Positions 4,876 through 64,000 of a stretch of DNA of 64,000 bases are shown here, one piece after another. Under the pieces are notes generated by a model. That model saw nothing but the letters and a program-made list of their open reading frames with translations. It did not search any database and had not been told where the DNA came from. This DNA is from an uncultured Gammaproteobacteria bacterium (GTDB lineage Bacteria; Patescibacteriota; Patescibacteriia; Magasanikbacterales; JBBTXJ01), in assembly GCA_964610305.1 (NCBI GenBank), contig CAZSVL010000003.1, positions 13,122-77,121 of the forward strand, written 5' to 3'. Numbering within the stretch: the first letter of the stretch is position 1; every line of letters begins with the position of its first letter. The position numbers were made by a program, and so were the translations under genes.

Positions 4876-4907
4876 CTACTACGCACATTTACAACACGGA
4901 GGTCTCC

Positions 4908-6134
4908 ATGCGCAAGAGAAAATTGTGCACTAAATACGGCGAAATTCAGGTTCCAGCAAAGTCGCTGCACGGAAGCGCTGTGCTGTATTCTGAGCAGACG
5001 GTGGAGATTCTTGCTGGCACAAAAATGCGTGACGGCAAGGTTCTTAAAAAGTCAGTTACACTGCTCCCAGGAACCATCTTCATGCCACGGCTTCACAAGC
5101 CGGAGACAGGAAGGCCGTACTTTGTCTGGCAGATTTACGCTCAAGGAATCTTTGATGCTCTGCGCGGAATTATGCATATTCAGGCTGGCTACGATAGTCA
5201 GTATGAGCAGCGATACGGCCGGATGGGTGAGGTGCAGACCATAGAAGACGTGCGGTCAGCTCTGAACACCATTTTGGGATGGCTTGCCACTTACAGCAGC
5301 CTCTCTGATTTAGAGAAAGATGCGCTTGGTGAGTTTATCTCTGGAAAAACAGAGCTTGTGGGTAATGTTCAGGATGAGCATAAGCGCAGAGCGCTAGAGC
5401 GGATGATTGCCGCAAGCAAAGAAAAAGATTCTTCTGGGAAGTCTAACCCTAGTGCGCGTATGGCGCGCAGTGTTGGTGCCCGTAGAGATCTGCATGAGCG
5501 TCTGTCTCTGATCAGATTCATTGAGCCGCGGATTGGTACGCGCGCAGTTGCTTTGGCAACAGAAGACGCACGGATCCGCAGGATTTACGCGGACGCGTAC
5601 AAAAGATTTAGTGCCATTGAAAACTCAATCGGCAATGCAATTGCTGGTATGGGAGATAGCGCCAAGCGCTTTGCTGTTACGGTGATGGGAATGGTGGAAG
5701 ATCTGCAGACTATCAAGGTTGGACCCTATCCATCGCATGTGCAGAGGATCGTTAAAGATGCTCAGCAGGTTGGTAACTATATTGCAGCAAACCAAAAGAA
5801 GAAGGCACTTGCTGTACGCAAGAGGATCCTGGAGTCTCTGCGTTGCAAGAGAGCTCGCTGGCAGCTAGAGGGTATCCGTACGCCGCTTTCAATTGCAGCG
5901 GCAGGAAAAAAGAAAGATAGAGAAGCGGCTGTTGCGGCGGGGACACACAAGGTTTTTGCTGCAAGGTTGCAGGATTTCTCTGGAAGAATGGCAACCATTG
6001 CGGACGAGGATTTCAGCAAGAAAGTGAGATCCTTTGCGGTGGTGCGTTGTGATAAAGCGGCATCGCTCTTGATGGATCTGGAAGATTTTAGGGGTGCCAA
6101 GACCCTCGTCGGAGAAGCTTGTAACAGACTCTAG
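4908..6134 (+). CDS. Hypothetical protein (408 aa, Arg/Ala-rich, no recognisable domain)
   Basis: Long ORF with strong promoter and RBS. Composition is GC-richer than neighbouring genes. Confidence 0.6.
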   Translation: MRKRKLCTKYGEIQVPAKSLHGSAVLYSEQTVEILAGTKMRDGKVLKKSVTLLPGTIFMPRLHKPETGRPYFVWQIYAQGIFDALRGIMHIQAGYDSQYEQRYGRMGEVQTIEDVRSALNTILGWLATYSSLSDLEKDALGEFISGKTELVGNVQDEHKRRALERMIAASKEKDSSGKSNPSARMARSVGARRDLHERLSLIRFIEPRIGTRAVALATEDARIRRIYADAYKRFSAIENSIGNAIAGMGDSAKRFAVTVMGMVEDLQTIKVGPYPSHVQRIVKDAQQVGNYIAANQKKKALAVRKRILESLRCKRARWQLEGIRTPLSIAAAGKKKDREAAVAAGTHKVFAARLQDFSGRMATIADEDFSKKVRSFAVVRCDKAASLLMDLEDFRGAKTLVGEACNRL

Positions 6135-6434
6135 TTTGGTGGTGGCAGGATTGGCTGCTTATTAAAGAAAGAGGATGTTGCTACCATCATTCTACCTTAA
6201 AGATTTGCAGCAACAAGATTTAGCTTTTTGTAAGATGAACGTGCTGTTGCTGCTGTTTGTTTGCTACCCAAGAGAGGTTGTGTAGTAAGACGGTTCCGGC
6301 TGGGCGGCTTTTCTTTATTGAACTTTTCAGTGGCAAGATCGGCGAGCTGCAAGGACCAAGGGAGTGCCACTGTTTTCCGACGTTGCGTTGCAGCGTCGGT
6401 TTTTAATTTAAAAAGCGCCTTGCGGCGCCTTTTT

Positions 6435-7499
6435 CTATCCTGCAATGAGTTCCTGCTTCTCAACTTCTTCCAGTATCGCTTTCTTAATTTTCGGAATGAG
6501 CTTAGGATTGTCATTTTTCATATACAGCCTTGCTTTCTCCCTTCCCACACCCAAGCGCTCCTCGCCATAGGTGTAGCTGTTGCCGCTTTTTTTAATTACA
6601 CCATAGAGCACGCCGGCATCAAGCAAGTCTCCTGTAATTGAAATACCCTCGTTATACATTATGTTCACAATAGCTGTTCTAAACGGTGGTGCCACTTTAT
6701 TTTTAACAATCTTCACCTTCACTTGGTTGCCCACAATTTTGTCACTTTGTTTTATCTGAGCGCTGCGCCTTACTTCTATTCTAATACTTGAATAAAATTT
6801 AAGCGCGTTTCCTCCCGTGGTGGTCTCAGGATTGCCAAAGAAGACGCCAATTTTGTGCCGTGTTTGGTTTATAAAGATAACCACAGTATTTGTCTTTGCA
6901 ACAATACCCGCAAGTTTTCTGAGGGCTTGGCTCATGAGTCTTGCTTGCAGCCCCATGTGTCGATCCCCCATATCGCCCTCAATTTCCGCCTTGGGAACCA
7001 GTGCTGCAACAGAGTCAACAACAATAACATCAACAGCATTTGATCTCACCAGCGTCTCAACAATTTCCAAGGCTTGCTCACCAGTATCAGGCTGAGAAAT
7101 TAAAAGCTCATCTACATTCACACCAATTTTTTTTGCGTATTCTGGATCAAGCGCATGCTCTGCATCTACAAAAGCAGCCAGACCGCCTATTTTTTGAACC
7201 TCAGAAACAATGTGCTGCGCCAGCGTTGTTTTTCCTGATGCTTCTGGACCAAATACTTCTATTATTCTTCCGCGTGGTACGCCACCAATGCCCAGTGCAA
7301 TATCAATAGAGAGACAACCGGTAGGGATGGCGTCTATTTCAGTTCGTTTGGCCTGGCCGAACTTCATTATAGAGCCATCTCCAAATCTTTGCTTTATCTG
7401 ATCAATAGCGGCCTGCGCTGCCGCGGCTCTTGGGTCGGTCTTTTTGTTCTCCTCTTTCTTTTTCCCCTCCTTGGATTTAGTTTGCGTCTGCTCTGGCAT
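6435..7499 (-). CDS. recA: Recombinase RecA
   Basis: Walker [12 protein letters not shown], the L1/L2 regions and the overall RecA consensus are obvious. Confidence 0.95.
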
Positions 7500-24910: not shown

Positions 24911-24982
24911 GTCATTGCGAGCGAAGCGAAGCAATCCCGTTGCTAACTTGTTGGGATTGCTTCGCCTCCGGCTCGCAATGAC
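24911..24982. repeat. GTCAT-family long-hairpin repeat (subtype B)
   Basis: GTCATTGCGAGCGAAGCGAAGCAATCCC...GGGATTGCTTCGCCTCCGGCTCGCAATGAC. Confidence 0.8.
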
Positions 24983-45991: not shown

Positions 45992-46112
45992 AGACTAAAC
46001 TTGTGCATCTAAGTTGTAAAACAGTACAGGCCACTGTACAGATGAGGGCCGACGCTCCGGTCGACCCCCCGACTTCGACTCTGTCGAACGTCGGGGCTAA
46101 GGGCCCAGACTA
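45981..46112. repeat. 17-bp direct repeats (tRNA-Ala positions -6 to 11) flanking a 50-nt twin-hairpin insert (46046-95) plus ~49 nt. The upstream copy is a tRNA-Ala 5' pseudo-fragment with the insert after position 11.
   Basis: gctaagggcccagacta at 45981-45997 and 46096-46112. Between them: GGGCCCTTAGC[insert]TCATCTG... Confidence 0.7.
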
Positions 46113-50334: not shown

Positions 50335-50406
50335 GCGGGTATGGTATAAGGGCTATTATTTCTGCCTTCCAAGCAGACGATACGGGTTCGATTCCCGTTA
50401 CCCGCT
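50335..50406 (+). tRNA. tRNA-Gly (anticodon TCC); probable native copy
   Basis: GCGGGTA-TG-GTATAAGGGCTATTA..TCTGC-CTTCCAA-GCAGA..CGGG-TTCGATT-CCCG-TACCCGC-T closely resembles the canonical E. coli tRNA-Gly(UCC) sequence. Confidence 0.85.
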
Positions 50407-55590: not shown

Positions 55591-56598
55591 CTAGATAACA
55601 GGATTAAGAGGTTTTCTTCCACCAAGCACGGCGATGATATTTTTTGCAGCAATTTTTGCCATCTCATCTCTGGTTTCTTTTGCTGCACTGGCAATGTGTG
55701 GGGTTAAAATAACATTTTCCATGTCACGCAAAGCCATGTGATCTTTTACATTGCAATCTATAAGCGGCTCACATTCAAATACATCAAGTGCGGCGCCAGC
55801 GATTTGTTTTTTCTTAAGTGCTCGCAAGAGCGCAATTTCTTTTACAATCGGGCCGCGGGCTGTATTTACCAGAAAAGCGGTTTCTTTCATGGCAGCCAGT
55901 TCTTTGGTGCCAATAAGATATTTTGTAGATGGTAGTAGGGGAACATGGACAGAGACAACATCAGATCTTTTGCAAAGATTTAGCAAGTTCACTCTTTTTG
56001 CGCTTACATCTTTTTCTAATTGTTTGTTTTTAACCACGTCAGCGTACAAAATTTTCATGCCAAGTCCGTGGTGTGCAAACCGTGCGGTGGCACTTCCAAT
56101 TCTTCCGCCCCCAACAAGACCTAATGTCTTTCCTGAAAGTTCTGTGGTAAGCATCATAAGAGGAGCCCAACTTTTATACTTTCCTGCGCGTGTGTATCGG
56201 TCTGCTTCTACTATTCTTTTTGAGATAGCCATGATAAGAGCAATGGTATGCTCTGCAACGGCGCGGCTAAGGACACCTGGCGTATTGGTTATGGTAACGC
56301 CGTATTTTTTTGCAGCTTTTATATCTATATTGTTGTATCCTACTGCATTTTGAGCAATAACTTTTAGTTGAGATCCGGCAGCTTTAAAGACGCCTTCATC
56401 TATTTTTTCCGTAAGCATGCATAAAATAGCATCTGCTCCTTTTATTTCCTTAAGAAGATTTTTGTAAGGTATGGCGGGGCCGCTTCCGTACACATCGCGT
56501 TTATCGTGCCAGACTTTTACTTCAAAGTTTTTCTTAGTCTTGAGTAGTTTCATCCCAGCATCTGGAATGGTTCTTGTGATAAATATTTTCTTTTTCAT
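55591..56598 (-). CDS. D-isomer-specific 2-hydroxyacid dehydrogenase (glycerate/phosphoglycerate dehydrogenase family)
   Basis: Start taken at MKKKIFITRT. NAD-binding GLVGGGRIGSATARF. Catalytic R/E/H triad region. Confidence 0.85.
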   Translation of the reverse strand: MKKKIFITRTIPDAGMKLLKTKKNFEVKVWHDKRDVYGSGPAIPYKNLLKEIKGADAILCMLTEKIDEGVFKAAGSQLKVIAQNAVGYNNIDIKAAKKYGVTITNTPGVLSRAVAEHTIALIMAISKRIVEADRYTRAGKYKSWAPLMMLTTELSGKTLGLVGGGRIGSATARFAHHGLGMKILYADVVKNKQLEKDVSAKRVNLLNLCKRSDVVSVHVPLLPSTKYLIGTKELAAMKETAFLVNTARGPIVKEIALLRALKKKQIAGAALDVFECEPLIDCNVKDHMALRDMENVILTPHIASAAKETRDEMAKIAAKNIIAVLGGRKPLNPVI

Positions 56599-56648
56599 GG
56601 CGATATTATAACACAAAGCCACTGTAACAGCGGCTTTGTTTGATTGAT

Positions 56649-57236
56649 TTATTCTACAATGAGAGATCCGGTCATACTCCCGTGGCCTGATCCGCATGGG
56701 ACGCTACATACCAGCGGGAATGTTCCCTTACTGCTGGCAGTAAATTCTATAGTGGTGGCTTTTCCAGGAGAGAGCACTTCATTTACGTTGAATGCTTTTA
56801 TGAAAATGCCGTGAGTGACATCCGTGCTTTCAATAATGAGTCTCACCGTGTCTCCTTGGTTTACTCTAACCACCTCTGGATCAAATTCCCATTTTCGTGC
56901 GGTCATGTTTATTATACGCAGCGCACCTTCATCAGACACCGGTGCTGCAGTCGTATTGCTGGATCCGTTCTGGTTCTGGGTCTCCGCCGACGCCCCCTCG
57001 TCGGCTGACGCTTTTGGGGCCGGCTCTGTCACTTGCTCTGTTGTCTCTTCTGTTGCCTCATCCTGCACCGTTTCTGCTGTTGGCTGATCAGGATCAACTA
57101 TTTCTACTGACACCTCTGCGCTGTTAGAGCTCTCACTCGTATCTGATGGGTCTGTTGTCTCTTCTGTATTTCCTCCAGAGCAGCCTGCGCCCAGAAGGAT
57201 AAGCGCCGCTACCGCGTATTTGAGTTTTTTTTGCAT
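56649..57236 (-). CDS. Cupredoxin-domain lipoprotein with CuA-type ligand motif
   Basis: Lipobox LLGAGC. Acidic low-complexity linker. C-terminal H...C-x3-C-G-x2-H-x2-M (HGIF...CSVPCGSGHGSM). Confidence 0.6.
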   Translation of the reverse strand: MQKKLKYAVAALILLGAGCSGGNTEETTDPSDTSESSNSAEVSVEIVDPDQPTAETVQDEATEETTEQVTEPAPKASADEGASAETQNQNGSSNTTAAPVSDEGALRIINMTARKWEFDPEVVRVNQGDTVRLIIESTDVTHGIFIKAFNVNEVLSPGKATTIEFTASSKGTFPLVCSVPCGSGHGSMTGSLIVE

Positions 57237-57325
57237 AGGTTTATGTTTACTTGAGCTTATCGTACCAAAGGCGCGCGCGCAAGTGGATTAAAAAACCCGC
57301 AACACCTGAGTGTGCGGGTGGGCTG

Positions 57326-58192
57326 TTAGGCCCGTGCTCGTGCTATAGCTGTGGCTTCTTCCTCCCAGCGCTGCCTTTCTGCCCTCTGAGCAATGGCTGG
57401 ATCAACAGCAAAGCTGAAACCCTCGTTCTGGAGCTTCTCCACCATCTCTGCAGAGAGAGGCGTGCGGTGACCGCTCCGTACATGGTTGTCCGTGAATTCA
57501 ACCCCGCAACCAGTGCAGTAGTTGAGATCCAGGCCACCACCACAGTTGGCGCAGTTGTAGTCGGTGAAGGCGCCGCGTCCGCCCTTCAGTTCAGCGGCAA
57601 TTGCAGGATCAGTTGTAGAGAAGACGATCGATTTCTCTAGCAGCTCAAACTCAGGCGCACTCGGATCGTTGTGGATTTTGTTGTAACCACGGTCCAGACA
57701 GAGCCACAGGTAGGTCACCGTGGTTGGATAACCTGGTCCGGTAGGTGCAGGGTGCAGTTTGGTCGGATCCTGCAGAATGATCTGCAGGACACTCTGCCAC
57801 GTGTCCTCTATCAGCTCATTGCCCCAATGTGACCGTGCGTAAGCCACCGCTCGCCTCTGCTGCTCGGTAGCCGCAGTATCGTCTAGTCGCTTAGAGAACG
57901 CGTAGTCTAGGCTGGGGTCTTTTTCTTCGTGGCCGGGCAGAAAGTTGATGACGTGAAATGCGCCAGCAATCCTGATGCCGGGAACAGCAACATATGGATG
58001 CTCCACCGCAAAGGCTGCAACAGCTTCTTCTGGTGTCAGGTGAGGACAGAGTGCAATCATGTCCTGCTCAGTTGGGTTTTCAATGGGCAGCCGCCTAAGA
58101 ATCTCTAGGTACTCACGTGAAGTCATGCTTCCTCCAGGAAAAGATTTGTTTCTAGATTCTTTCTTGATGGCTTCATAGCGTGAAGCTCTCAA
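57326..58192 (-). CDS. Hypothetical protein (GC-rich, Cys cluster CANCGGG...CTGCG)
   Basis: 288 aa. Lies immediately 3' of ssrA. Composition atypical for the window. Confidence 0.45.
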   Translation of the reverse strand: MRASRYEAIKKESRNKSFPGGSMTSREYLEILRRLPIENPTEQDMIALCPHLTPEEAVAAFAVEHPYVAVPGIRIAGAFHVINFLPGHEEKDPSLDYAFSKRLDDTAATEQQRRAVAYARSHWGNELIEDTWQSVLQIILQDPTKLHPAPTGPGYPTTVTYLWLCLDRGYNKIHNDPSAPEFELLEKSIVFSTTDPAIAAELKGGRGAFTDYNCANCGGGLDLNYCTGCGVEFTDNHVRSGHRTPLSAEMVEKLQNEGFSFAVDPAIAQRAERQRWEEEATAIARARA

Positions 58193-58222
58193 GAAAATGC
58201 CCCAGGTCTTACGCTGGGGCGG

Positions 58223-58585
58223 GGTGGAGGCGCCGGGAGTCGAACCCGGGTCCAGAAAGGTTGTTCATCTGCGTCTACGTGTGTATTCCTTGCATGGTTG
58301 CCTACGCTGCTTTGCCCAAGGACAGGCGGCTGCGCAGCCGGTTCATTGCTGTGTTTAAGACATGCTCCGCAATTCCATTAGAGCAGTACCGAGCCTACAT
58401 AAGTTTCCCTAATCCCGCCTATAGGCGAGCGAGCTTTGGGGTCGCATGCTGCGTACTAGGCAGCGAGCGCGACGGACTCAGCGTCAGTATTGGCGTCTGA
58501 GTTGCGCCCGGGGGATCAAAGGGTCCCAGACATCCCTTACACGCAGCAGGTAGCGTCCGCTCCCTGTCGAAACCAGTTCGCCCCC
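58223..58585 (-). ncRNA. ssrA: tmRNA (SsrA), tag peptide ANTDAESVALAA
   Basis: 5' GGGGGCGAACTGGTTTCGACAGGGA. tRNA-like 3' end GGGTTCGACTCCCGGCGCCTCCACC. In-frame GCC AAT ACT GAC GCT GAG TCC GTC GCG CTC GCT GCC TAG. Confidence 0.85.
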
Positions 58586-58598
58586 GTAAGGGTTTGTG

Positions 58599-58967
58599 TT
58601 AGTCAATGTCCAGATCATACTCGTCCCAGTAGGGGTCTCCGTCTAGATCTGCACATTCATCAGAGTGCGAAACGGCACAGCCTTCATCGCAGAAGTCCAT
58701 GTACCAATCGCAGCCTTCATCATAGCAGGATCTGCAATCAGCGAGTGCTTTGATGAAGTACTCGTTTTCGTCACAGAGCTCCCAGCTTTCCACTGTAGAG
58801 AGCTTGACCGATCCGAGGGTTGGTAGATCTTCAAAGGCCGCATCAAAGAGACCTTCCACGATCTCGTTTTTTGCGTCAAGGAGCGGCCGACTATTCCGGT
58901 GAAATGACATTGTTTCCCTTTTCAGTGAAAGAAGGACGATTAGCGCAGTATGAAGACAGTATAGCAC
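58599..58967 (-). CDS. Hypothetical acidic Cys-rich protein
   Basis: GC-rich ORF. The start may be the internal MSFHRN. Confidence 0.35.
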   Translation of the reverse strand: MLYCLHTALIVLLSLKRETMSFHRNSRPLLDAKNEIVEGLFDAAFEDLPTLGSVKLSTVESWELCDENEYFIKALADCRSCYDEGCDWYMDFCDEGCAVSHSDECADLDGDPYWDEYDLDID

Positions 58968-59073
58968 ATTTTGTACATTTTGTCAAGGGTAAAATGCCAC
59001 TTTATCTCTTATTTTAGCCAAATTTACGTAATAAAAAAACTGCCGTCTCCCGAAGGATCAGGCAGCGTGCACT

Positions 59074-59817
59074 TTACTGTTGAAAGTGCGGATTACGCTT
59101 CTGACACCAGAGCTTCTGACGCTCGTTCAGTGTGGACCAAAAGGCGACTTCGGCTTTGCTGAACTTCCTGCCCTGCCTGTAGTGGCCGATCAAGAAATCC
59201 TTTTTGATGCTGTAGCAGCGGCGTTGCCCACAGCTGTGGTAGACCTCTCTGGTTTCCCGCTCAGAGCCTTCCGTCAGTTCCATCCAGAAAAGCTCTTTGC
59301 CACTCACTTTGACCGCTCGGGAACCGATCCAAGCCTTGAGCATCTCATTGCTGATTTGCGGCTGGTGCGTTTTGTAACGCCGTCGCCAGGACCGGGGACT
59401 GCACTTGAGGATGCCGTCTTTGACGAAGGCGCCAAAGCAAGGCTTATCACCTTCACACCAGTGACAGCCAAAGCAGATCATTCGCGCGATGGTCTGCACC
59501 AGGACGTAGTTTCGCACTTTGCGCGTGTCGTAGCGTGCCGTCAGCTCGCTGTAGACATCGTCCCAGCGCCTGCCGTTTTGGGACTTCAGCCACTTGCTGA
59601 TGCATGCCGCGAAGTGATCGTGTTTGTCATCCCACCAGCCGGATTTTTCCAGCAGGGGAGTTGCCTGCTCGTCCCACAGATCAGGGTCTTGTGTCATTTT
59701 GTGACAGAACCGACGCGTCCTTTGCCTCTCCTTTCGCCGCAAAAAGGCGATGGCGTGTTTGTACCAGTTGGGGTGACCACCCTGCACGATGGTCCTTGCC
59801 AAGTTCCTGTTGGCCAT
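59074..59817 (-). CDS. Hypothetical protein (Trp/Cys/Arg-rich), paralogous N-terminus with 59944-60435
   Basis: MANRNLARTIVQGG...RRWDDVYSELTARYD. GC-rich. Confidence 0.45.
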   Translation of the reverse strand: MANRNLARTIVQGGHPNWYKHAIAFLRRKERQRTRRFCHKMTQDPDLWDEQATPLLEKSGWWDDKHDHFAACISKWLKSQNGRRWDDVYSELTARYDTRKVRNYVLVQTIARMICFGCHWCEGDKPCFGAFVKDGILKCSPRSWRRRYKTHQPQISNEMLKAWIGSRAVKVSGKELFWMELTEGSERETREVYHSCGQRRCYSIKKDFLIGHYRQGRKFSKAEVAFWSTLNERQKLWCQKRNPHFQQ

Positions 59818-59943
59818 GTTGGCCTCCCTGTTGATTTAACTAACCAACATGACTTACCTCCTCTGAATATTCCTTCGGCACAGAGCACAGCGTGTATGCC
59901 CTGTGTTAAAGTGCCATCCCGAGATTTTTCGGGATGGCTGGTG

Positions 59944-60435
59944 TTACTCTTCAGCGGTGTGCGGATGAGTGCTGGCGGTGGGGCGCCATCGCCATGGCGG
60001 AATTGCATTGTCACGCAAGATTCCGTCCTCATCAACTACGTAATAGGCTCCGCATTCGATGCTTTCTGAATCCACCATGTTTTGCTCGTGCCACATGGGC
60101 GCTACTTCTGGATCAATATGATCGTAGATCATATGACGCCCTTTGAGTGATCTTACATCGTGGCGTCGGTGGAGATCGCTTTTGACATCAGCCCATGGGC
60201 GTCCACATTGACGATCAAGCCAGCGATACACTGGATTGAGCGTATCAGAGAATTCTCGGTAGAACCAGCCACGATGCGGCTTGTCCTGGATGTCTAGATC
60301 ACTAGGATCTGCCGCGCATTGAAGAGTTCTCTTTGCGTTCTGCCGATTGTTGCGGTTGATTGCTCGGCGCTCAAATTTGCTTGCCTTGCTCCGGCCACCC
60401 TCAATGGCTGAGCGAGAGAGTTTTTTTGTTGCCAT
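59944..60435 (-). CDS. Hypothetical protein, paralogous N-terminus with 59074-59817
   Basis: MATKKLSRSAIEGG...RPWADVKSDLHRRHD. Confidence 0.45.
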   Translation of the reverse strand: MATKKLSRSAIEGGRSKASKFERRAINRNNRQNAKRTLQCAADPSDLDIQDKPHRGWFYREFSDTLNPVYRWLDRQCGRPWADVKSDLHRRHDVRSLKGRHMIYDHIDPEVAPMWHEQNMVDSESIECGAYYVVDEDGILRDNAIPPWRWRPTASTHPHTAEE

Positions 60436-60514
60436 GCAACCTCCAATGTAGATTAAATAATCTTCATTGTAGGCCTCCGTGTTTATGCATGATGTGCTCC
60501 TTTATGATGCGAAG

Positions 60515-60670
60515 TGGAAGGGGTAGGATTCGATGAGCAAATGAGTGAGTGTAATAAACATGCTCGCATGCTTATTACCGAGCGAATGCTGCTCGGCCCG
60601 AAGGGCACCTACGAAGACGGTGTCGTCGGATTTACAATCCGGTGCCTTTAACCAACTCGGCCACCCTTCC
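60515..60670 (-). tRNA. tRNA-Tyr (anticodon GTA), type II, carrying a 73-nt structured insertion in the T-loop between nt 54 and 55 (60534-60606)
   Basis: GGAAGGG...CCGGA-TTGTAAA-TCCGA...GTAGG-T[GCCCTTCGGGCCGAGCAGCATTCGCTCGGTAATAAGCATGCGAGCATGTTTATTACACTCACTCATTTGCTCA]TCGAAT-CCTAC-CCCTTCC-A. Confidence 0.6.
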
Positions 60671-60677
60671 ATTAAAG

Positions 60678-60752
60678 TATCCCCAAGGGGATTTGAACCC
60701 CTGCCTCCGGATTGAGAGTCCGGTGTCCTGAGCCTGACTAGACGATGGGGAC
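60678..60752 (-). tRNA. tRNA-Glu (anticodon CTC)
   Basis: GTCCCCATCGTCTAG...CCGGA-CTCTCAA-TCCGG...GGGG-TTCAAAT-CCCC. Confidence 0.75.
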
Positions 60753-60756
60753 GGGG

Positions 60757-60830
60757 CGGTGATGACGAGACTTGAACTCGCAACCTTCGGCCTGACAAGC
60801 CGCTACACTAGCCAATTGTGTTACATCACC
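60757..60830 (-). tRNA. tRNA-Asp (anticodon GTC)
   Basis: Acceptor GGTGATG/CATCACC-G, anticodon loop TTGTCAG. Confidence 0.7.
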
Positions 60831-60868
60831 TGAAGGCTTGCCTGGCGTAGCCGAAGGCGAAGCCTGGG

Positions 60869-60941
60869 TGGAGCCGACAGGAATCGAACCTGCGACATCC
60901 GGCGTGCAAAGCCGGCGCTCTCCCAACTGAGCTACAGCCCC
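60869..60941 (-). tRNA. tRNA-Ala (anticodon TGC), G3-U70; second copy
   Basis: GGGGCTG-TA-GCTC-AGTTGGGA-GAGC-G-CCGGC-TTTGCAC-GCCGG...CGGCTCC-A. Confidence 0.8.
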
Positions 60942-60948
60942 AAATAGG

Positions 60949-61037
60949 AGGAGGGGGTGGGATTTGAACCCACGGGACTCACTGGTGAGCCCAACGGGTT
61001 AGCAACCCGACGCCTTCAGCCACTCGGCCACCCCTCC
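60949..61037 (-). tRNA. tRNA-Ser (anticodon GCT), type II
   Basis: Acceptor GGAGGGG/CCCCTCC, 3-bp D-stem, anticodon loop TTGCTAA, long variable arm GGGCTCACCAGTGAGTCC. Confidence 0.75.
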
Positions 61038-61041
61038 ATAA

Positions 61042-61116
61042 TGCGCCCGGCGGGATTTGAACCCGCAACCACTGGATCCGGAGTCCAGCGCTCTACATCC
61101 ATTGAGCTACGGGCGT
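61042..61116 (-). tRNA. tRNA-Arg (anticodon CCG)
   Basis: ACGCCCG-TA-GCTC-AATGGATGTA-GAGC-G-CTGGA-CTCCGGA-TCCAG...GCGGG-TTCAAAT-CCCGC-CGGGCGC-A (A1-C72 mismatch). Confidence 0.7.
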
Positions 61117-61126
61117 TCAATGCTGA

Positions 61127-61181
61127 GGGCCGACGCTTTGGTCGCCCCCCCGACCCCTTCGGGCGTCGGGGCTACGGACGC
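61127..61181 (-). repeat. 44-nt twin-hairpin element (61127-61170) with an upstream pseudo-acceptor GCGTCCG-TAGC (61171-61181), duplicating the tRNA-Arg(CCG) 5' end
   Basis: RNA sense: GCGTCCG TAGC [CCCGACGCCCGAAGGGGTCGGGGGGGCGACCAAAGCGTCGGCCC] TCAGCATTGA ACGCCCGTAGC... Confidence 0.6.
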
Positions 61182-61186
61182 TTAAG

Positions 61187-61259
61187 TACGCCGTGAGGGA
61201 ATTGAACCCCCGACCCATGGATTAAAAGTCCAGTGCTCTACCTACTGAGCTAACAGCGC
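61187..61259 (-). tRNA. tRNA-Lys (anticodon TTT)
   Basis: GCGCTGT-TA-GCTC-AGTAGGTA-GAGC-A-CTGGA-CTTTTAA-TCCAT...GGGGG-TTCAATT-CCCTC-ACGGCGT-A. Confidence 0.7.
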
Positions 61260-61265
61260 ATAAAA

Positions 61266-61338
61266 GGTGAATGACGGGACTTGAACCCGCGACCTCTGGA
61301 GCCACAATCCAGCGCTCTCCCATCTGAGCTACATTCAC
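61266..61338 (-). tRNA. tRNA-His (anticodon GTG), C73
   Basis: GTGAATG-TA-GCTC...CTGGA-TTGTGGC-TCCAG...GCGGG-TTCAAGT-CCCGT-CATTCAC-C. Confidence 0.75.
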
Positions 61339-61340
61339 AG

Positions 61341-61413
61341 TGCCAGAGACAAGAATTGAACTTGTGACTCAGGGATTTTCAATCCCCAGCTCTACCTACT
61401 GAGCTACCCTGGC
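61341..61413 (-). tRNA. tRNA-Phe (anticodon GAA), intact, A37
   Basis: GCCAGGG-TA-GCTC-AGTAGGTA-GAGC-T-GGGGA-TTGAAAA-TCCCT-GAGTC-ACAAG-TTCAATT-CTTGT-CTCTGGC-A. Confidence 0.8.
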
Positions 61414-61415
61414 AT

Positions 61416-61489
61416 AGAACGGAGGGGGACTCGAACCCCCGAACATCCGATTTGCAGTCGGAGCCCTTAGCCAACTCGGGTACCCGTTC
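61416..61489 (-). tRNA. tRNA-Cys (anticodon GCA), U73; second copy
   Basis: GAACGGG...TCCGA-CTGCAAA-TCGGA-TGTTC-GGGGG-TTCGAGT-CCCCC-TCCGTTC-T. Confidence 0.75.
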
Positions 61490-61496
61490 AGAGATT

Positions 61497-61530
61497 TGTC
61501 TCCCTTCGGGAGATCTCCCGAAGGGAGACA
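61497..61530. repeat. 34-bp perfect palindrome (twin hairpin) upstream of tRNA-Cys; homologous to 1419-1452
   Basis: tgtctcccttcgggagatctcccgaagggagaca. Confidence 0.85.
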
Positions 61531-61567
61531 GTCCTGTACCTAGCCAATTCGGACACTCATCCAGAAG

Positions 61568-61713
61568 TGCGCACACTTGGACTTGATCGGTAAACGAGTG
61601 AGTGGAGTAGGCATGCTTGCATGTCTACTCCCGAGCAAGTGCGACCGAGCCCGAAGGGTACCAAGGACCCTCTGGGTGTAAACCAGATGCTCTCCCAACT
61701 GAGCTATGCACGC
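61568..61713 (-). tRNA. tRNA-Val (anticodon TAC) carrying a 73-nt structured insertion in the T-loop between nt 54 and 55 (61587-61659)
   Basis: GCGTGCA-TA-GCTC-AGTTGGGA-GAGC-A-TCTGG-TTTACAC-CCAGA-GGGTC-CTTGG-T[ACCCTTCGGGCTCGGTCGCACTTGCTCGGGAGTAGACATGCAAGCATGCCTACTCCACTCACTCGTTTACCGA]TCAAGT-CCAAG-TGTGCGC-A. Confidence 0.6.
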
Positions 61714-61717
61714 GCAG

Positions 61718-61799
61718 TAGGTCGGGGGAGACTTGAACTCCCACGTCTAATGACACCAGATTTTGAATCTGGCGCGTCTACCGGTTCCGCCACCGACCC
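61718..61799 (-). tRNA. tRNA-Leu (anticodon CAA), type II
   Basis: GGGTCGG-TG-GCG...CCAGA-TTCAAAA-TCTGG-TGTCATTAGACGT-GGGAG-TTCAAGT-CTCCC-CCGACCT-A. Confidence 0.75.
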
Positions 61800-61871
61800 G
61801 TCTTTGTAATATGCTTCTATCAGAAAGTGAAGATTCACCGTCTGAATAAAAGGGGGAAGAGACTTCCCCGG

Positions 61872-61988
61872 AGCGGTAAGCCGGCCTCGAACCGACGACC
61901 CTCTGCTTGGAAGGCAGACGCTCTACCAACTGAGGACCGACGTTTCAGTCGGTCCCCCGACCCCTTTAGGCGTCGGGGCTATTACCGT
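61872..61988 (-). tRNA. tRNA-Gly (anticodon TCC) copy interrupted in the D-stem (between nt 11 and 12) by a 44-nt twin-hairpin element (61934-61977)
   Basis: ACGGTAA-TA-GC[CCCGACGCCTAAAGGGGTCGGGGGACCGACTGAAACGTCGGTCC]TC-AGTTGGTA-GAGC-G-TCTGC-CTTCCAA-GCAGA-GGGTC-GTCGG-TTCGAGG-CCGGC-TTACCGC-T. Confidence 0.55.
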
Positions 61989-61998
61989 AAATTTAAAG

Positions 61999-62071
61999 AG
62001 CGGATGATCGGGCTTGAACCGATGACTATCTGGTTGGAAGCCAGATGCTCTCCCAACTGAGCTACATCCGC
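61999..62071 (-). tRNA. tRNA-Gly (anticodon TCC), intact array copy
   Basis: GCGGATG-TA-GCTC-AGTTGGGA-GAGC-A-TCTGG-CTTCCAA-CCAGA-TAGTC-ATCGG-TTCAAGC-CCGAT-CATCCGC-T. Confidence 0.8.
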
Positions 62072-62075
62072 AAAG

Positions 62076-62148
62076 TACGCCGTGGAGGATTCGAACCTCC
62101 GACCGATGGATTAAGAGTCCACTGCTCTACCAACTGAGCTAACAGCGC
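62076..62148 (-). tRNA. tRNA-Lys (anticodon CTT)
   Basis: GCGCTGT-TA-GCTC-AGTTGGTA-GAGC-A-GTGGA-CTCTTAA-TCCAT-CGGTC-GGAGG-TTCGAAT-CCTCC-ACGGCGT-A. Confidence 0.75.
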
Positions 62149-62153
62149 AAAAG

Positions 62154-62224
62154 CTCGGGAACTAGGATTCGAACCTAGATGAACTGATCCAGAGTCAGCC
62201 GTCCTGCCGTTAGACGATTCCCGA
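62154..62224 (-). tRNA. tRNA-Gln (anticodon CTG)
   Basis: TCGGGAA-TC-GTCT-AACGGCA-GGAC-G-GCTGA-CTCTGGA-TCAGT...CTAGG-TTCGAAT-CCTAG-TTCCCGA-G. Confidence 0.75.
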
Positions 62225-62234
62225 ATGGTTAGTT

Positions 62235-62309
62235 GTCATTGCGAGCAGTGTAACTGCGAAGCAATCCGGTATGTAAGCAACGGGATTGCTTCGCTTTGCT
62301 TGCAATGAC
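62235..62309. repeat. GTCAT-family long-hairpin repeat (subtype B) inside the tRNA array
   Basis: GTCATTGCGAGCAGTGTAACTGCGAAGCAATCC...GGGATTGCTTCGCTTTGCTTGCAATGAC. Confidence 0.8.
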
Positions 62310-62317
62310 GAGAGAGG

Positions 62318-62410
62318 AAGAGGGACTGGGATTCGAACCCAGGGAGCATCTTTTTAGGACGCCCAACGGTTTTCAAGACCGCCGCCTTCGACCAACTCGG
62401 CCACCCCTCC
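62318..62410 (-). tRNA. tRNA-Ser (anticodon TGA), type II
   Basis: GGAGGGG-TG-GCC...GCGGT-CTTGAAA-ACCGT + long variable arm + CTGGG-TTCGAAT-CCCAG-TCCCTCT-T. Confidence 0.7.
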
Positions 62411-62414
62411 AGAG

Positions 62415-62485
62415 CTCCGGAACTAGGATTCGAACCTAGATAATAAGATCCAAAGTCTTACGTCCTGCCGTTAGACGATTCCGGA
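62415..62485 (-). tRNA. tRNA-Gln (anticodon TTG)
   Basis: TCCGGAA-TC-GTCT...TAAGA-CTTTGGA-TCTTA...CTAGG-TTCGAAT-CCTAG-TTCCGGA-G. Confidence 0.75.
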
Positions 62486-62503
62486 ATAAGGTGGTAAGAA
62501 AGG

Positions 62504-62577
62504 GGCCGGAGATCGGAATCGAACCGATGACCTGCGGGTTACAAATCCGCTGCTCTACCTAACTGAGCTAATCCGGC
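62504..62577 (-). tRNA. tRNA-Thr (anticodon TGT)
   Basis: GCCGGAT-TA-GCTC-AGTTAGGTA-GAGC-A-GCGGA-TTTGTAA-CCCGC-AGGTC-ATCGG-TTCGATT-CCGAT-CTCCGGC-C. Confidence 0.65.
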
Positions 62578-62582
62578 AAAAG

Positions 62583-62656
62583 TACGCCACCTAGGATTTG
62601 AACCTAGGACCTCTGGCTCCGCAAGCCAACGCTCTGTCCAACTGAGCTAGTGGCGC
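62583..62656 (-). tRNA. tRNA-Arg (anticodon GCG)
   Basis: GCGCCAC-TA-GCTC-AGTTGGACA-GAGC-G-TTGGC-TTGCGGA-GCCAG-AGGTC-CTAGG-TTCAAAT-CCTAG-GTGGCGT-A. Confidence 0.65.
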
Positions 62657-62657
62657 G

Positions 62658-62729
62658 CAGGCGGGGGAGGATTTGAACCTCCAGTCCAGGATTTGGAATC
62701 CTGTGGTTTGCCAATTAACCGACCCACCC
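62658..62729 (-). tRNA. tRNA-Trp (anticodon CCA)
   Basis: GGGTGGG-TC-GGTT-AATTGGCA-AACC-A-CAGGA-TTCCAAA-TCCTG-GACTG-GAGG-TTCAAAT-CCTC-CCCGCCT-G. Confidence 0.7.
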
Positions 62730-62733
62730 AAAG

Positions 62734-62807
62734 TCCCCGGAGGTGGAGTTGAACCACCGACCTTTGGCATATCAGACCATTGCTCTAACCAACTGAGCTA
62801 CCCGGGA
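62734..62807 (-). tRNA. tRNA-Ile (anticodon GAT)
   Basis: TCCCGGG-TA-GCTC-AGTTGGTTA-GAGC-A-ATGGT-CTGATAT-GCCAA-AGGTC-GGTGG-TTCAACT-CCACC-TCCGGGG-A. Confidence 0.7.
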
Positions 62808-62813
62808 GTAAAG

Positions 62814-62898
62814 TAGGCGAGGTGGGACTTGAACCCACACGTCATAAGACACTGGAACCTAAACCCAGCGCGTCTGCCAAATGTTCCGCCACTCGCCC
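62814..62898 (-). tRNA. tRNA-Leu (anticodon TAG), type II
   Basis: GGGCGAG-TG-GCGG...CTGGG-TTTAGGT-TCCAG-TGTCTTATGACGT-GTGGG-TTCAAGT-CCCAC-CTCGCCT-A. Confidence 0.75.
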
Positions 62899-62903
62899 TT
62901 ATT

Positions 62904-63086
62904 TTATTTCCACTGTCTTTTGCGCAGCTTTTTCCAGCTTTTGCTACGGCTTGATCGTGACTCGTTCTCAAATGAGTGCGGCTTGCAAAAAGAGCACTTA
63001 CCTGTCTTCTGAGAAATGACACCACGCCGCGCTTGGTTGTAAATCCTGCTTTCCGTTGCGCCGTCCATGATCTTCTTGAAGCTCAT
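62904..63086 (-). CDS. Small basic hypothetical protein (60 aa) embedded in the tRNA array
   Basis: Strong ribosome-binding site AGGAGA, 5 nt, then ATG. MSFKKIMDGATESRIYNQARRGVISQKTGKCSFCKPHSF... has no family assignment. Confidence 0.4.
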   Translation of the reverse strand: MSFKKIMDGATESRIYNQARRGVISQKTGKCSFCKPHSFENESRSSRSKSWKKLRKRQWK

Positions 63087-63103
63087 TTCTATCTCCTAAG
63101 AAG

Positions 63104-63176
63104 TACGCCATGGAGGATTCGAACCTCCGACCAGTGGGTTAGAAATCCACTGCTCTGTCCCCTGAGCTAATGGCGC
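63104..63176 (-). tRNA. tRNA-Arg (anticodon TCT), intact
   Basis: GCGCCAT-TA-GCTC-AGGGGACA-GAGC-A-GTGGA-TTTCTAA-CCCAC-TGGTC-GGAGG-TTCGAAT-CCTCC-ATGGCGT-A. Confidence 0.75.
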
Positions 63177-63247
63177 ATAGTGCTTTCGCAAAGCTGCTGC
63201 TAAATGCCCGGCGCAGGGATCTGACGACCCCTGCGCCTGGGCTTGCG

Positions 63248-63700
63248 TTAGGCGCTCATGATCTGTTCTTGGCTCCAGAGTGAATCTGGTGTAAAGAACT
63301 GATCTGCAGGCAAGCGGCCTTTCTGGTACTGCTGTGCCTCAGGTGAATCCGGCGGGTATTCCGTAAGTGCGGTAAACACGCACGGGCCGGAAGACCAAGG
63401 TGCGGCTTGCACCGCTTCAAAGAGTACACGTCCCAAAGGGAAGGTAAACTTTGAAAGCGTCACAAGTGAATCTGCGCCACATTGCTCTGCTTCATCGCAC
63501 GGCAGCGCAAAGGGATCTAGCCAGCTGTAGCCTCCCTCCTGATGAAGAACCGTGCTCTTGTAGAGCAGTCGGTCCTCCTGAGGCTCTCTTGTGCCGTCCG
63601 GAAAAATCCGGACTACTTGCTCGGTACACCAGTGCACCTGCTCGCCTGCCACGAGCTCTTGGGCTTTTTGGGTAAGCCCGAACCACTGCGTTGCGCGCAT
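63248..63700 (-). CDS. Hypothetical protein (GC-rich)
   Basis: 150-aa ORF with composition atypical for the window. No family recognised. Confidence 0.4.
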   Translation of the reverse strand: MRATQWFGLTQKAQELVAGEQVHWCTEQVVRIFPDGTREPQEDRLLYKSTVLHQEGGYSWLDPFALPCDEAEQCGADSLVTLSKFTFPLGRVLFEAVQAAPWSSGPCVFTALTEYPPDSPEAQQYQKGRLPADQFFTPDSLWSQEQIMSA

Positions 63701-63810
63701 GCGTCCTCCTTTGCTGGCGCTTCTTCTCTGAGAATTTCATGCTAGGTTATCTCTAGCTAACCAACATGAAGGACGCTGCTTTTGTGCTTTGGAGCACAAG
63801 TATCCCCAAC

Positions 63811-63830
63811 CGGATTTGCCCTGCACTACA
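63811..63830 (-). pseudogene. Fragment of the tRNA-Glu 3' end (about 20 bp) followed by a 9-bp-stem hairpin
   Basis: tatccccaaccggatttgcc versus tatccccaaggggatttgaacc of the intact gene. Then the hairpin CACCCTGAAcctttatggTTCAGGGTG. Confidence 0.5.
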
Positions 63831-63891
63831 AGAGTGCGGGGCACCCTGAACCTTTATGGTTCAGGGTGAACCCTGAGAAAGTATCCCCAAG

Positions 63892-63966
63892 GGGATTTGA
63901 ACCCCTGTTGCCAGCTTGAAAGGCTGGCGTCCTAGGCCGTACTAGACGATGGGGACTAAAGTAGCG
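63892..63966 (-). tRNA. tRNA-Glu (anticodon TTC)
   Basis: GTCCCCATCGTCTAGTACGGCCTAGGAC-GCCAGC-CTTTCAA-GCTGGC...GGGG-TTCAAAT-CCCC-TTGGGGAT-A. Confidence 0.75.
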
Positions 63967-63971
63967 GGAAC

Positions 63972-64000
63972 CGGATTTGAACCGGCGACCTCTGGGGTAT
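63972..64000 (-). tRNA. tRNA 3' portion (T-arm GCCGG-TTCAAAT-CCGGT, acceptor TCCCGCT-A). The gene continues beyond the window edge.
   Basis: Reverse complement of the window end reads ...GGTCGCCGGTTCAAATCCGGTTCCCGCTAC. Confidence 0.5.

Follow-up and report, generated by a model that had tools for sequence, protein, structure and literature searches.

The window analysed here (the whole 64-kb stretch of 64,000 nucleotides from contig CAZSVL010000003.1) ends in a dense row of transfer RNA (tRNA) genes on the minus strand at 60,515-64,000, to which we refer as the tRNA array and for which an earlier reading of the letters alone (the sequence-only reading) had proposed a mobile or phage-derived origin. 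The tRNA genes were called over the whole window by ARAGORN and by an Rfam covariance search. ARAGORN lists 30 RNA genes, of which 22 are minus-strand tRNAs at 60,677-63,956, and Rfam confirms all 22 with scores of 45-72 bits, a range equal to that of the genes dispersed elsewhere in the window. Rfam also adds, at or above its gathering score, a tRNA-Tyr(GTA) at 60,515-60,670 (37.8 bits) and a second tRNA-Gly(TCC) at 61,874-61,938 (30.4 bits) and, below that score, a tRNA-Val(TAC) (26.5 bits) and a tRNA that is cut by the window edge at 63,962-64,000 (22.1 bits). The edge-cut gene is a complete Met-CAT on L001, a Logan contig from the same sequencing run as the genome to which the window belongs, which reaches 123 nt past position 64,000. 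Altogether the array comprises 26 tRNA genes, of which 22 are intact, 3 are interrupted and 1 is truncated at the window edge, with 25 anticodons for 18 amino acids plus the initiator in 3.49 kb (3,486 bp), or 7.5 genes per kb, which bears out the earlier count of about 25 minus-strand genes in 3.5 kb. All of the genes lie on the same strand, the gaps between them are mostly 1-18 nt long with the larger ones filled by open reading frames (ORFs), inserts or gene fragments, and the array runs on upstream past the window edge.

Read along the minus strand from that edge, the array begins with the Met-CAT gene (3' part at 63,962-64,000, complete at 90-163 of L001), which by our reading is initiator-like in its 1:72 mismatch and its GGG/CCC anticodon stem; upstream of it L001 carries a 3' fragment of a tRNA-Pro and a repeated element (E3, described below). 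It is followed by Glu-TTC (63,882-63,956), by a tRNA-Glu 3' fragment (63,798-63,818) that begins in the T-loop and matches the 3' end of the Glu-TTC gene on L002, a contig from a relative of the host, and not that of the window's own Glu-TTC, and by ORF150 (63,248-63,700), which is led by a Shine-Dalgarno (SD) sequence, has a GC content at third codon positions (GC3) of 0.58 and returns no homologs or family hits. An intact Arg-TCT (63,104-63,176) separates ORF150 from a second SD-led frame, ORF60 (62,904-63,086), for which there are no family hits. Leu-TAG (62,814-62,898), Ile-GAT (62,734-62,807), Trp-CCA (62,658-62,729), Arg-GCG (62,583-62,656), Thr-TGT (62,504-62,577), Gln-TTG (62,415-62,485) and Ser-TGA (62,318-62,410) then lead to a spacer with a long inverted repeat of the GTCAT type (GTCATTGC...GCAATGAC, 62,228-62,312), part of which (62,276-62,309) recurs at 24,911-24,944 with 94% identity over 34 nt. 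The anticodon GCG is unusual for a bacterial tRNA-Arg, ACG being the usual one, and the array carries Arg-CCG and Arg-TCT besides it.

Beyond the spacer lie Gln-CTG (62,154-62,224), Lys-CTT (62,076-62,148), an intact Gly-TCC of non-canonical scaffold (61,999-62,071), the second and interrupted Gly-TCC (61,872-61,988), a terminator-like hairpin with a T-run (61,853-61,869, a match to the consensus only, the number of such sites found being not above chance), Leu-CAA (61,718-61,799), the interrupted Val-TAC (61,568-61,715), Cys-GCA (61,416-61,489), an intron-less Phe-GAA (61,341-61,413), His-GTG (61,266-61,338) and Lys-TTT (61,187-61,259). The row closes with a tRNA 5' fragment (GCGTCCGTAG...CTCAG, 61,117-61,181) that resembles the 5' end of the neighbouring Arg-CCG (61,042-61,116), with Ser-GCT (60,949-61,037), Ala-TGC (60,869-60,941), Asp-GTC (60,757-60,830) and Glu-CTC (60,678-60,752), and with the interrupted Tyr-GTA (60,515-60,670). 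The small SD-led ORF, the GTCAT repeat and the tRNA-Glu fragment reported by the sequence-only reading are thus all in place, with two SD-led frames where it had seen one.

Several features of the individual genes bear on whether their products can serve in translation. Identity elements, as read by eye, are kept in the array tRNAs (G3:U70 in Ala, G1C2G3 and U73 in Gly, U73 in Cys) and, together with the Rfam scores of 45-72 bits, they make it likely that the array tRNAs are functional. The tRNA-His gene has a T at position -1, and hence no encoded G-1, with C73 present; in bacterial tRNA-His, G-1 is usually encoded in the gene. CCA is encoded by none of the genes, whether in the array or dispersed, and would therefore be supplied by a CCA-adding enzyme. 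A CTT(T) trailer follows 13 of the 25 listed array genes as compared to none of 8 dispersed genes.

The window is part of a cellular chromosome, encoding among others rpoB, an unsplit rpoC, ftsK, a class II ribonucleotide reductase, guaB and glmS. Its RpoB shares 79-81% identity with proteins that bear the labels Candidatus Uhrbacteria, Magasanikbacteria or Patescibacteria group, on which grounds we assign the host to the bacteria of the candidate phyla radiation (CPR), as an Uhrbacteria/Magasanikbacteria-like member of the Patescibacteria. Independent Logan contigs from the same sample agree with the window at 100% over 62,365-64,000 and at 99.96% over 55,736-61,175, with 61,176-62,364 outside their coverage, and for the stretches so covered an assembly artefact can be rejected. 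The contigs that were reached by exact protein look-up are short Logan contigs of run SRR8146441 (L001 and L005), and the independent read assembly breaks at the 5' fragment beside Arg-CCG, which bears one of the inserts described below.

On its downstream side the array gives way to a group of minus-strand genes in the order ORF163 (59,944-60,435), ORF247 (59,074-59,817), a hairpin with T-run, a promoter, ORF122 (58,599-58,967) and ssrA, the gene for transfer-messenger RNA (58,222-58,585, tag ANTDAESVALAA), which is the anchor of the conserved locus. The hairpin (59,030-59,070) is imperfect, is followed by T7 and was read by eye, not called by the scan; it is likely to mark the end of the transcription unit of the array and the two ORFs. 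The promoter (58,958-58,986), of sigma70-like form TTGACA-17-TATACT with a TG extension, lies upstream of ORF122 and ssrA and matches at 11 of 12 positions. Counts from the promoter and terminator scans are not above shuffled expectation, and only this promoter is used here, with caution. The array is located on the 5' side of ssrA (at higher coordinates than this minus-strand gene), whereas integrating elements use the 3' end.

The same locus is found on L002, a contig that was reached through the sole near relative of ORF247 among 5.8 billion proteins. The two share, in the same order, ORF163 (ORF268 on L002, 72% identical), ORF247 (44%), a small ORF (ORF122 here, ORF107 there, 34%), ssrA with an identical tag, a hypothetical ORF, a cupredoxin (71%), a 2-hydroxyacid dehydrogenase (84%), a BNR protein (71%), tRNA-Gly(GCC) and a DM13 protein (76%), the core proteins of window and contig being 65-84% identical. 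When the genome collection was scanned with the aligned cupredoxin orthologs, a 36% match from Limnocylindrales, without tRNAs, was all that came back. Upstream of ORF268, L002 has only six tRNA genes, namely Asn, Pro, Met, Glu-TTC, Lys-TTT and Tyr-GTA, and a tRNA-Glu 3' fragment follows its Glu-TTC as it does in the window. This common order indicates that the frame of the locus (Met, Glu-TTC, the Glu fragment, Lys-TTT, Tyr, the ORFs and ssrA) was inherited. Within the frame the window has about 20 more tRNA genes and two more ORFs than L002, and the tRNA content of the locus differs about 4-fold between the window and this one relative, with no outgroup. The comparison with a close relative that the sequence-only reading had called for thus yields a shared locus with greatly different contents, and its picture of a simple mobile island abutting ssrA is not upheld, since the array lies 5' of ssrA and the tRNA cluster, the two paralogous ORFs and ssrA stand in the same order in L002. 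The tRNAs that the two loci have in common are 91% (Met), 77% (Lys-TTT), 77% (Glu-TTC) and 80% identical (Tyr, for the joined exons, the L002 ortholog being intact) and have diverged much more than the dispersed Gly-GCC, which is syntenic and 97% identical. The tRNA cluster of L002 is preceded by about 1.7 kb (4,880-6,580) without called genes, lying behind a near-consensus promoter (TTGACA-17-TATACT) and ending in two terminator-like hairpins; with a GC content of 53% and no Rfam family match, this stretch could encode one or two large non-coding RNAs.

A GC-rich block beside ssrA, also noted in the sequence-only reading, is present at 53-54% as compared to 45-47%. The GC3 of its ORFs is 0.50-0.72 in the window and 0.58-0.75 in L002 as against 0.35-0.47 for core genes of the window, and because this atypical composition is common to the window and L002, the block must be old and not a recent arrival.

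The relation between the array and the tRNA genes dispersed over the remainder of the window is one of partial redundancy. Outside the array there are nine tRNA genes with eight distinct anticodons. Seven of them are found by the standard tools (Cys-GCA, two Leu-TAA, Pro-TGG, Ala-TGC, Gly-TCC and Gly-GCC); an eighth, Phe-GAA at 45,569-45,859, holds a 218-nt group I intron; and the ninth, Arg-TCT at 40,997-41,184 on the minus strand, was missed by both ARAGORN and Rfam because of its two inserts. Five of the eight anticodons (Cys-GCA, Arg-TCT, Phe-GAA, Ala-TGC and Gly-TCC) recur in the array, a proportion close to expectation for a genome that encodes a full housekeeping set elsewhere, given an array with about 60% of the anticodons. 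The duplications listed by the sequence-only reading hold for the most part: Gly-TCC does occur three times (at 50,335, 61,872-61,988 and 61,999-62,071), Cys-GCA, Ala-TGC and Phe-GAA each have one array and one dispersed copy, and the second Arg-TCT is the interrupted gene at 40,997-41,184. Leu-TAA has to be struck from that list, both of its copies (41,202 and 44,509) being outside the array.

The array copies also differ in sequence from their dispersed counterparts, as had been claimed, with identities of 57-72% between genes of the same anticodon (57% for Cys-GCA and 72% for Ala-TGC, for example). Over its full length the dispersed Gly-TCC at 50,335 shares 89% identity with E. coli tRNA-Gly, which makes it close to the E. 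coli sequence and not identical to it as the sequence-only reading had it; that reading was right in giving the array Gly-TCC a different scaffold, for which we find no E. coli match and whose nearest relatives are the interrupted Gly-TCC copy (77%) and the array's Val-TAC (76%). From such comparisons the dispersed copies look native and canonical and the array copies do not. The sequence-only reading had named, as a finding that would speak against its proposal, an array that is the sole tRNA set; the array here is not, given the sequence-distinct dispersed copies within the window.

Some of the dispersed genes form a second, looser minus-strand cluster at 41,000-46,100, which consists of the interrupted Arg-TCT, Leu-TAA, an ORF for an IS110-family transposase (42,468-44,228), Leu-TAA, Pro-TGG, a 233-aa helix-turn-helix (HTH) ORF, the Phe-GAA with its group I intron and Ala-TGC, with copies of the insert E2 at both ends. 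The Pro-TGG of this cluster is 85% identical to the Pro-TGG in the L002 array, a likeness that suggests exchange or rearrangement between the two clusters. A tRNA-spacer repeat (CTTCGCTAAAGCTTCG...) is also common to both genomes, at 45,888-45,922 in the window and 8,897-8,931 in L002 (91% over 35 nt).

Comparisons among the array genes themselves give some indication of how the array grew. The nearest relatives within it are pairs of isoacceptors that differ in having U34 or C34, i.e., Lys-TTT and Lys-CTT (88%), Gln-TTG and Gln-CTG (86%) and Glu-TTC and Glu-CTC (83%), and the array's Arg-TCT is 82% identical to its Lys-CTT. The median over all array pairs is 57%, and from the contrast between this value and pair identities of 82-88% we infer local duplication followed by anticodon change. 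One such duplication would have changed amino-acid identity in an apparent Lys-to-Arg shift. Each of two 5' fragments that bear E2 repeats the 5' end of the gene next to it, Arg-CCG in one case and Ala-TGC in the other, and the fragments point to recombination at conserved boxes of tRNA genes (the T-loop and the D-arm).

Two kinds of structured insert interrupt tRNA genes in the window, and three array genes carry one or the other, in agreement with the insertion elements of the sequence-only reading. The first, E1, has a length of 70-73 nt and falls precisely between T54 and T55 of Tyr-GTA (60,534-60,606) and Val-TAC (61,587-61,659) in the array and of the dispersed Arg-TCT (41,016-41,085), all on the minus strand. 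When about 72 nt are deleted from the tRNA-Tyr gene, ARAGORN calls a tRNA, and the exons of Val-TAC and Arg-TCT, if joined at T54/T55, read as canonical cloverleafs. The three copies, which are about 71% identical to each other, have in common a fold in which a hairpin capped by UUCG/UACG is accompanied by a closing helix and a long hairpin. Pairing extends to 98% of cells in this fold as compared to 34-43% when the partner strand is slid, and changes on both sides occur in 8 of 18 pairs, a count reached by 0 of 500 shuffles, the structure having been derived from the same three sequences. E1 belongs to neither the group I nor the group II introns and has no matching family in Rfam. Searched with a covariance model, the fetched loci yield no additional strong copy, and the exact DNA pattern has no copies in the JGI metagenomes or IMG/VR. 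A weak covariance match just downstream of ssrA on L002 (11,666-11,734, minus strand, 24.7 bits, E ~0.008) may be due to chance.

The second insert, E2, spans about 45 nt, forms two GC-rich hairpins with a consensus fold by RNAalifold and is always found between TAG and CTCA in the D-stem. Its four copies, all on the minus strand, occur in two full-length genes, the second array copy of Gly-TCC (61,930-61,981) and the dispersed Arg-TCT (41,126-41,177), and in two duplicated 5' fragments that lie beside the intact Arg-CCG (61,123-61,174) and the dispersed Ala-TGC (46,040-46,100), respectively. The inserts are not specific to the array, since the dispersed Arg-TCT carries both of them; for this anticodon it is the native copy that is doubly interrupted and the array copy that is intact. 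A third repeated element, E3, is found at 1-80 of L001 and 8,520-8,668 of L002, ends in ...GCGAGCAGTGAAA, is 90% identical between the copies over 52 nt and directly precedes a tRNA 3' fragment begun in the T-loop, of Pro in the genome of the window and of Glu in L002.

A survey of tRNA introns (PMC13011429) reports for Patescibacteria only group I introns, located in anticodon loops, and for other phyla a handful of group II introns in tRNA genes, one of them in a D-loop; as only these two types are reported there, inserts of the E1 and E2 types are not described in it. That E1 and E2 together make up a class of intervening sequences new to bacterial tRNA genes is a doubtful proposition for the present, and it can be framed in two ways. 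The inserts may be removed at the RNA level by a novel cut-and-ligate pathway, in which case they would be bacterial tRNA introns of a new kind; ligases of the RtcB type are common among Patescibacteria. Alternatively, they may be miniature mobile elements that have the two most conserved boxes of tRNA genes as homing sites and would inactivate the genes they enter, and the array would then act as a buffer in which, through redundancy, every isoacceptor retains an intact copy.

As for a connection with phages, the most informative genes are ORF163 and ORF247, which are paralogues of each other (27% identity, E 4e-11) and belong to a large uncharacterised family with 3,770 cluster representatives in a profile search at E <=1e-3 and no Pfam model. 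The family has an invariant GG...R...W...GR.W...R N-terminal domain and, in structure prediction, a confident winged-helix-like core with no specific functional match. Its homologs include proteins of the Myxococcus phage Mx1 and of an uncultured Caudovirales (31% identity), and it recurs in contigs L006, L007 and L010 with phage HNH, phrog_35624, RNA ligase and NAD synthetase families, L006 and L007 having 6 and 17 same-strand tRNAs per 20 kb, respectively. Other members lie directly downstream of RtcB, or between MiaA and GatB near ThrRS in a metagenome-assembled genome (MAG) of Uhrbacteria. A metagenome scan with the alignment of ORF163 and ORF268 returned nothing, and ORF247 and ORF150 have no close relatives in IMG/VR. 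ORF247 itself is an outlier, its orthologs (59,074-59,817 in the window, 10,001-10,744 in L002) being 44% identical as compared to 65-84% for their neighbours, with GC3 values of 0.72 in the window and 0.75 in L002 in genomes with a GC3 of about 0.4; this suggests fast evolution or repeated replacement of the gene.

The array tRNAs, when compared by blastn to 50,697 phage records, give only generic, short matches at the level of tRNAs in general, and their identity to the L006 and L007 tRNAs of the same anticodon (49-74%) is no better than to the host's own copies; we discount these similarities as evidence for a phage origin of the tRNAs themselves. Nor do Pfam and PHROGs recognise any integrase or recombinase, phage structural or replication, or conjugation family in the ORFs of 57.3-64 kb, and no repeat of the ssrA 3' end or duplicated att core was found in the window, so that the search of the flanks recommended by the sequence-only reading came back empty on the ssrA side. 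The phage link therefore resides in the flanking protein family and in base composition, and not in the tRNAs or in mobility machinery. Of the earlier proposal of a mobile or phage-derived array, what survives is that the array is redundant with a distinct dispersed set, is atypical in composition, varies in content between relatives and is flanked by a family known from phages and phage-like, tRNA-rich contigs; what does not is any sign of an integrase, an att duplication or a phage structural gene in the roughly 6 kb on the ssrA side, the frame being inherited in L002.

We interpret the locus, with a probability of roughly 0.6, as a supernumerary tRNA array of the L-type (see below) at an inherited and compositionally atypical site upstream of ssrA in a Patescibacteria genome, which was enlarged in place by duplication and recombination and is flanked by a phage-associated family. 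The starting point would have been a small inherited cluster (initiator Met, Glu-TTC, Lys-TTT and Tyr) with the two paralogous winged-helix-like ORFs and ssrA, to which the lineage of the window would have added some 20 tRNA genes relative to the single available relative, if the direction was indeed gain here and not loss there. This growth would have proceeded at least partly by local duplication with anticodon change and by recombination at tRNA boxes that left fragments behind. The tightly spaced, co-oriented genes most likely give rise to polycistronic precursors that RNase P and RNase Z would cut, and the outcome would be a second, sequence-distinct set of tRNAs for 18 amino acids plus the initiator beside the canonical dispersed set, presumably serving as a reserve or supplementary tRNA pool that is not currently mobile.

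A number of observations weigh against this interpretation. The redundancy on which it draws is seen for 5 anticodons within 64 kb and is extrapolated to the rest, and with a single relative and no outgroup a gain in this lineage is inseparable from a loss in that of L002. Upstream, the array runs out of the window into sequence where an integrase or other mobility gene is possible, and the only strong promoter-like site lies downstream of the array in scans whose results do not exceed chance. Part of the array may be non-functional, given its three interrupted genes, its fragments and its tRNA-His without an encoded G-1, and the genome may have no other copies of the frame tRNAs, the initiator-like Met among them, which would then be native and not extra.

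Among other explanations, an improbable one is that the array arrived as a block, as cargo of a recent prophage or integrative/conjugative element that integrated site-specifically beside ssrA. The atypical composition, the very different tRNA contents of the two relatives, the phage associations of the ORF163 family, the upstream boundary beyond the window and the tRNA 3' fragments begun in the T-loop, which look like att scars, would all accord with such an arrival. However, integrating elements use the 3' side of ssrA and the array is on its 5' side; ORF163, ORF247, the small ORF, ssrA and a tRNA cluster are present in the relative, whose core proteins are 65-84% identical; the ORFs at 57-64 kb include neither an integrase nor a phage structural gene; and ORF247 and ORF150 are as devoid of close relatives in IMG/VR as the tRNAs are of specifically phage-like features. 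The array is not recognisable as a current prophage or integrative element.

We also regard it as quite unlikely that the array is the native, primary tRNA operon of the organism, comparable to those of Firmicutes, and that the dispersed duplicates are the odd ones. The high covariance scores, the conservation of the locus in the relative, including the initiator-like tRNA-Met (91%), and the fact that most array anticodons (e.g., His, Trp, Asp, Thr and Ile) have no second copy in 64 kb can be cited for this view. But L002 has six tRNAs at the locus, and some 20 isoacceptors must be encoded elsewhere in its genome; five of eight dispersed anticodons are duplicated in the array; the canonical and conserved copies are the dispersed ones (Gly-GCC at 97% to L002, Gly-TCC at 89% to E. 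coli), the array Gly-TCC being non-canonical; and there is no adjacent rRNA operon. The array is probably not the primary tRNA set. That it is a decaying relic, an acquired block now silent and gathering insertions, fragments and defects, is very unlikely, for although an E1 or E2 insert disrupts 3 of 26 genes, two tRNA fragments and a tRNA-His without encoded G-1 are present, and a terminator-like site lies within the array with no promoter for it visible in the window, 22 genes score 45-72 bits with cloverleafs and identity elements intact, the U34/C34 pairs have been retained after duplication and the interrupted genes regain canonical cloverleafs when their inserts are removed.

A supernumerary array enlarged in place would be of interest in several respects. 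More than 26 extra tRNA genes are unexpected in an ultra-small genome that has shed many essential genes, and the locus offers a natural test of whether tRNA arrays are parasitic baggage or a useful reserve. It also affords a rare view of an array growing in place, by duplication with anticodon switching and by recombination at the T-loop and D-arm.

No array of equal gene order was found elsewhere, and the comparison with known systems is one of type. A tRNA array unit has been defined by a minimum of 20 tRNA genes and of 2 such genes per kb (Tran et al. 2016, PMC4758250), thresholds that the 26 genes and 7.5 genes per kb of the present array exceed. L-arrays (Santamaria-Gomez et al. 2021, PMC8421152) consist of co-oriented, co-transcribable genes that are supernumerary and bring isodecoder redundancy rather than new anticodons; they are patchy among close relatives, which indicates horizontal acquisition, and are silent in normal growth and induced by translational stress. 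The array in the window shares the single orientation and, with gaps mostly of 1-18 nt, the tight spacing that would allow co-transcription, and its redundancy extends to 5 of the 8 dispersed anticodons within the 64 kb. It is like L-arrays such as the trn operon of Anabaena sp. PCC 7120 (PMC8421152) in its more than 20 tightly packed, co-oriented and non-periodic genes, supernumerary to a dispersed set, in its isodecoder redundancy, in having some defective members and in the small ORF of a mobile or phage-type family alongside. It differs in being part of a Patescibacteria chromosome, at a locus that is syntenic in a relative and not on a plasmid or other element, and in that its flanking ORFs are winged-helix-like where Anabaena has an HNH homing endonuclease. 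With the array units of Acidithiobacillus (located in an integrative/conjugative element, ICE), Mycobacterium and mycobacteriophages (PMC4758250; Morgado and Vicente 2018, PMC5966550) it has in common the numerical definition, the coverage of nearly all amino acids and the rearrangements, deletions and duplications between related arrays, the difference being that no ICE, plasmid or phage backbone is visible around it.

The tRNA-rich early regions of large phages (the T4-type clusters, and L006 and L007) resemble the locus in that tRNAs stand among small same-strand ORFs of unassigned role, including the ORF163 family. They differ from it in that the array belongs to a cellular chromosome (rpoB, rpoC, ftsK, glmS, guaB), is far denser in tRNA genes and encodes tRNAs that are not specifically related to those of L006 and L007 (49-74% identity). 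The native tRNA operons of Firmicutes, e.g., trnB and trnD of Bacillus subtilis, are located downstream of rRNA operons and make up the main tRNA set. They are also long chromosomal runs of tRNA genes, co-transcribed and vertically inherited, whereas the array in the window duplicates dispersed genes, is linked to ssrA and has no rRNA gene (by Rfam) within the same 64 kb. Known long tRNA arrays come from Firmicutes, Cyanobacteria, Actinobacteria, gamma-Proteobacteria and phages, and Patescibacteria were not covered in the surveys concerned (PMC4758250, PMC8421152). The type of array described here is itself known, and what is added is its occurrence in a phylum outside those published surveys; the structured inserts in its tRNA genes are the more unusual feature and the one most worth pursuing.

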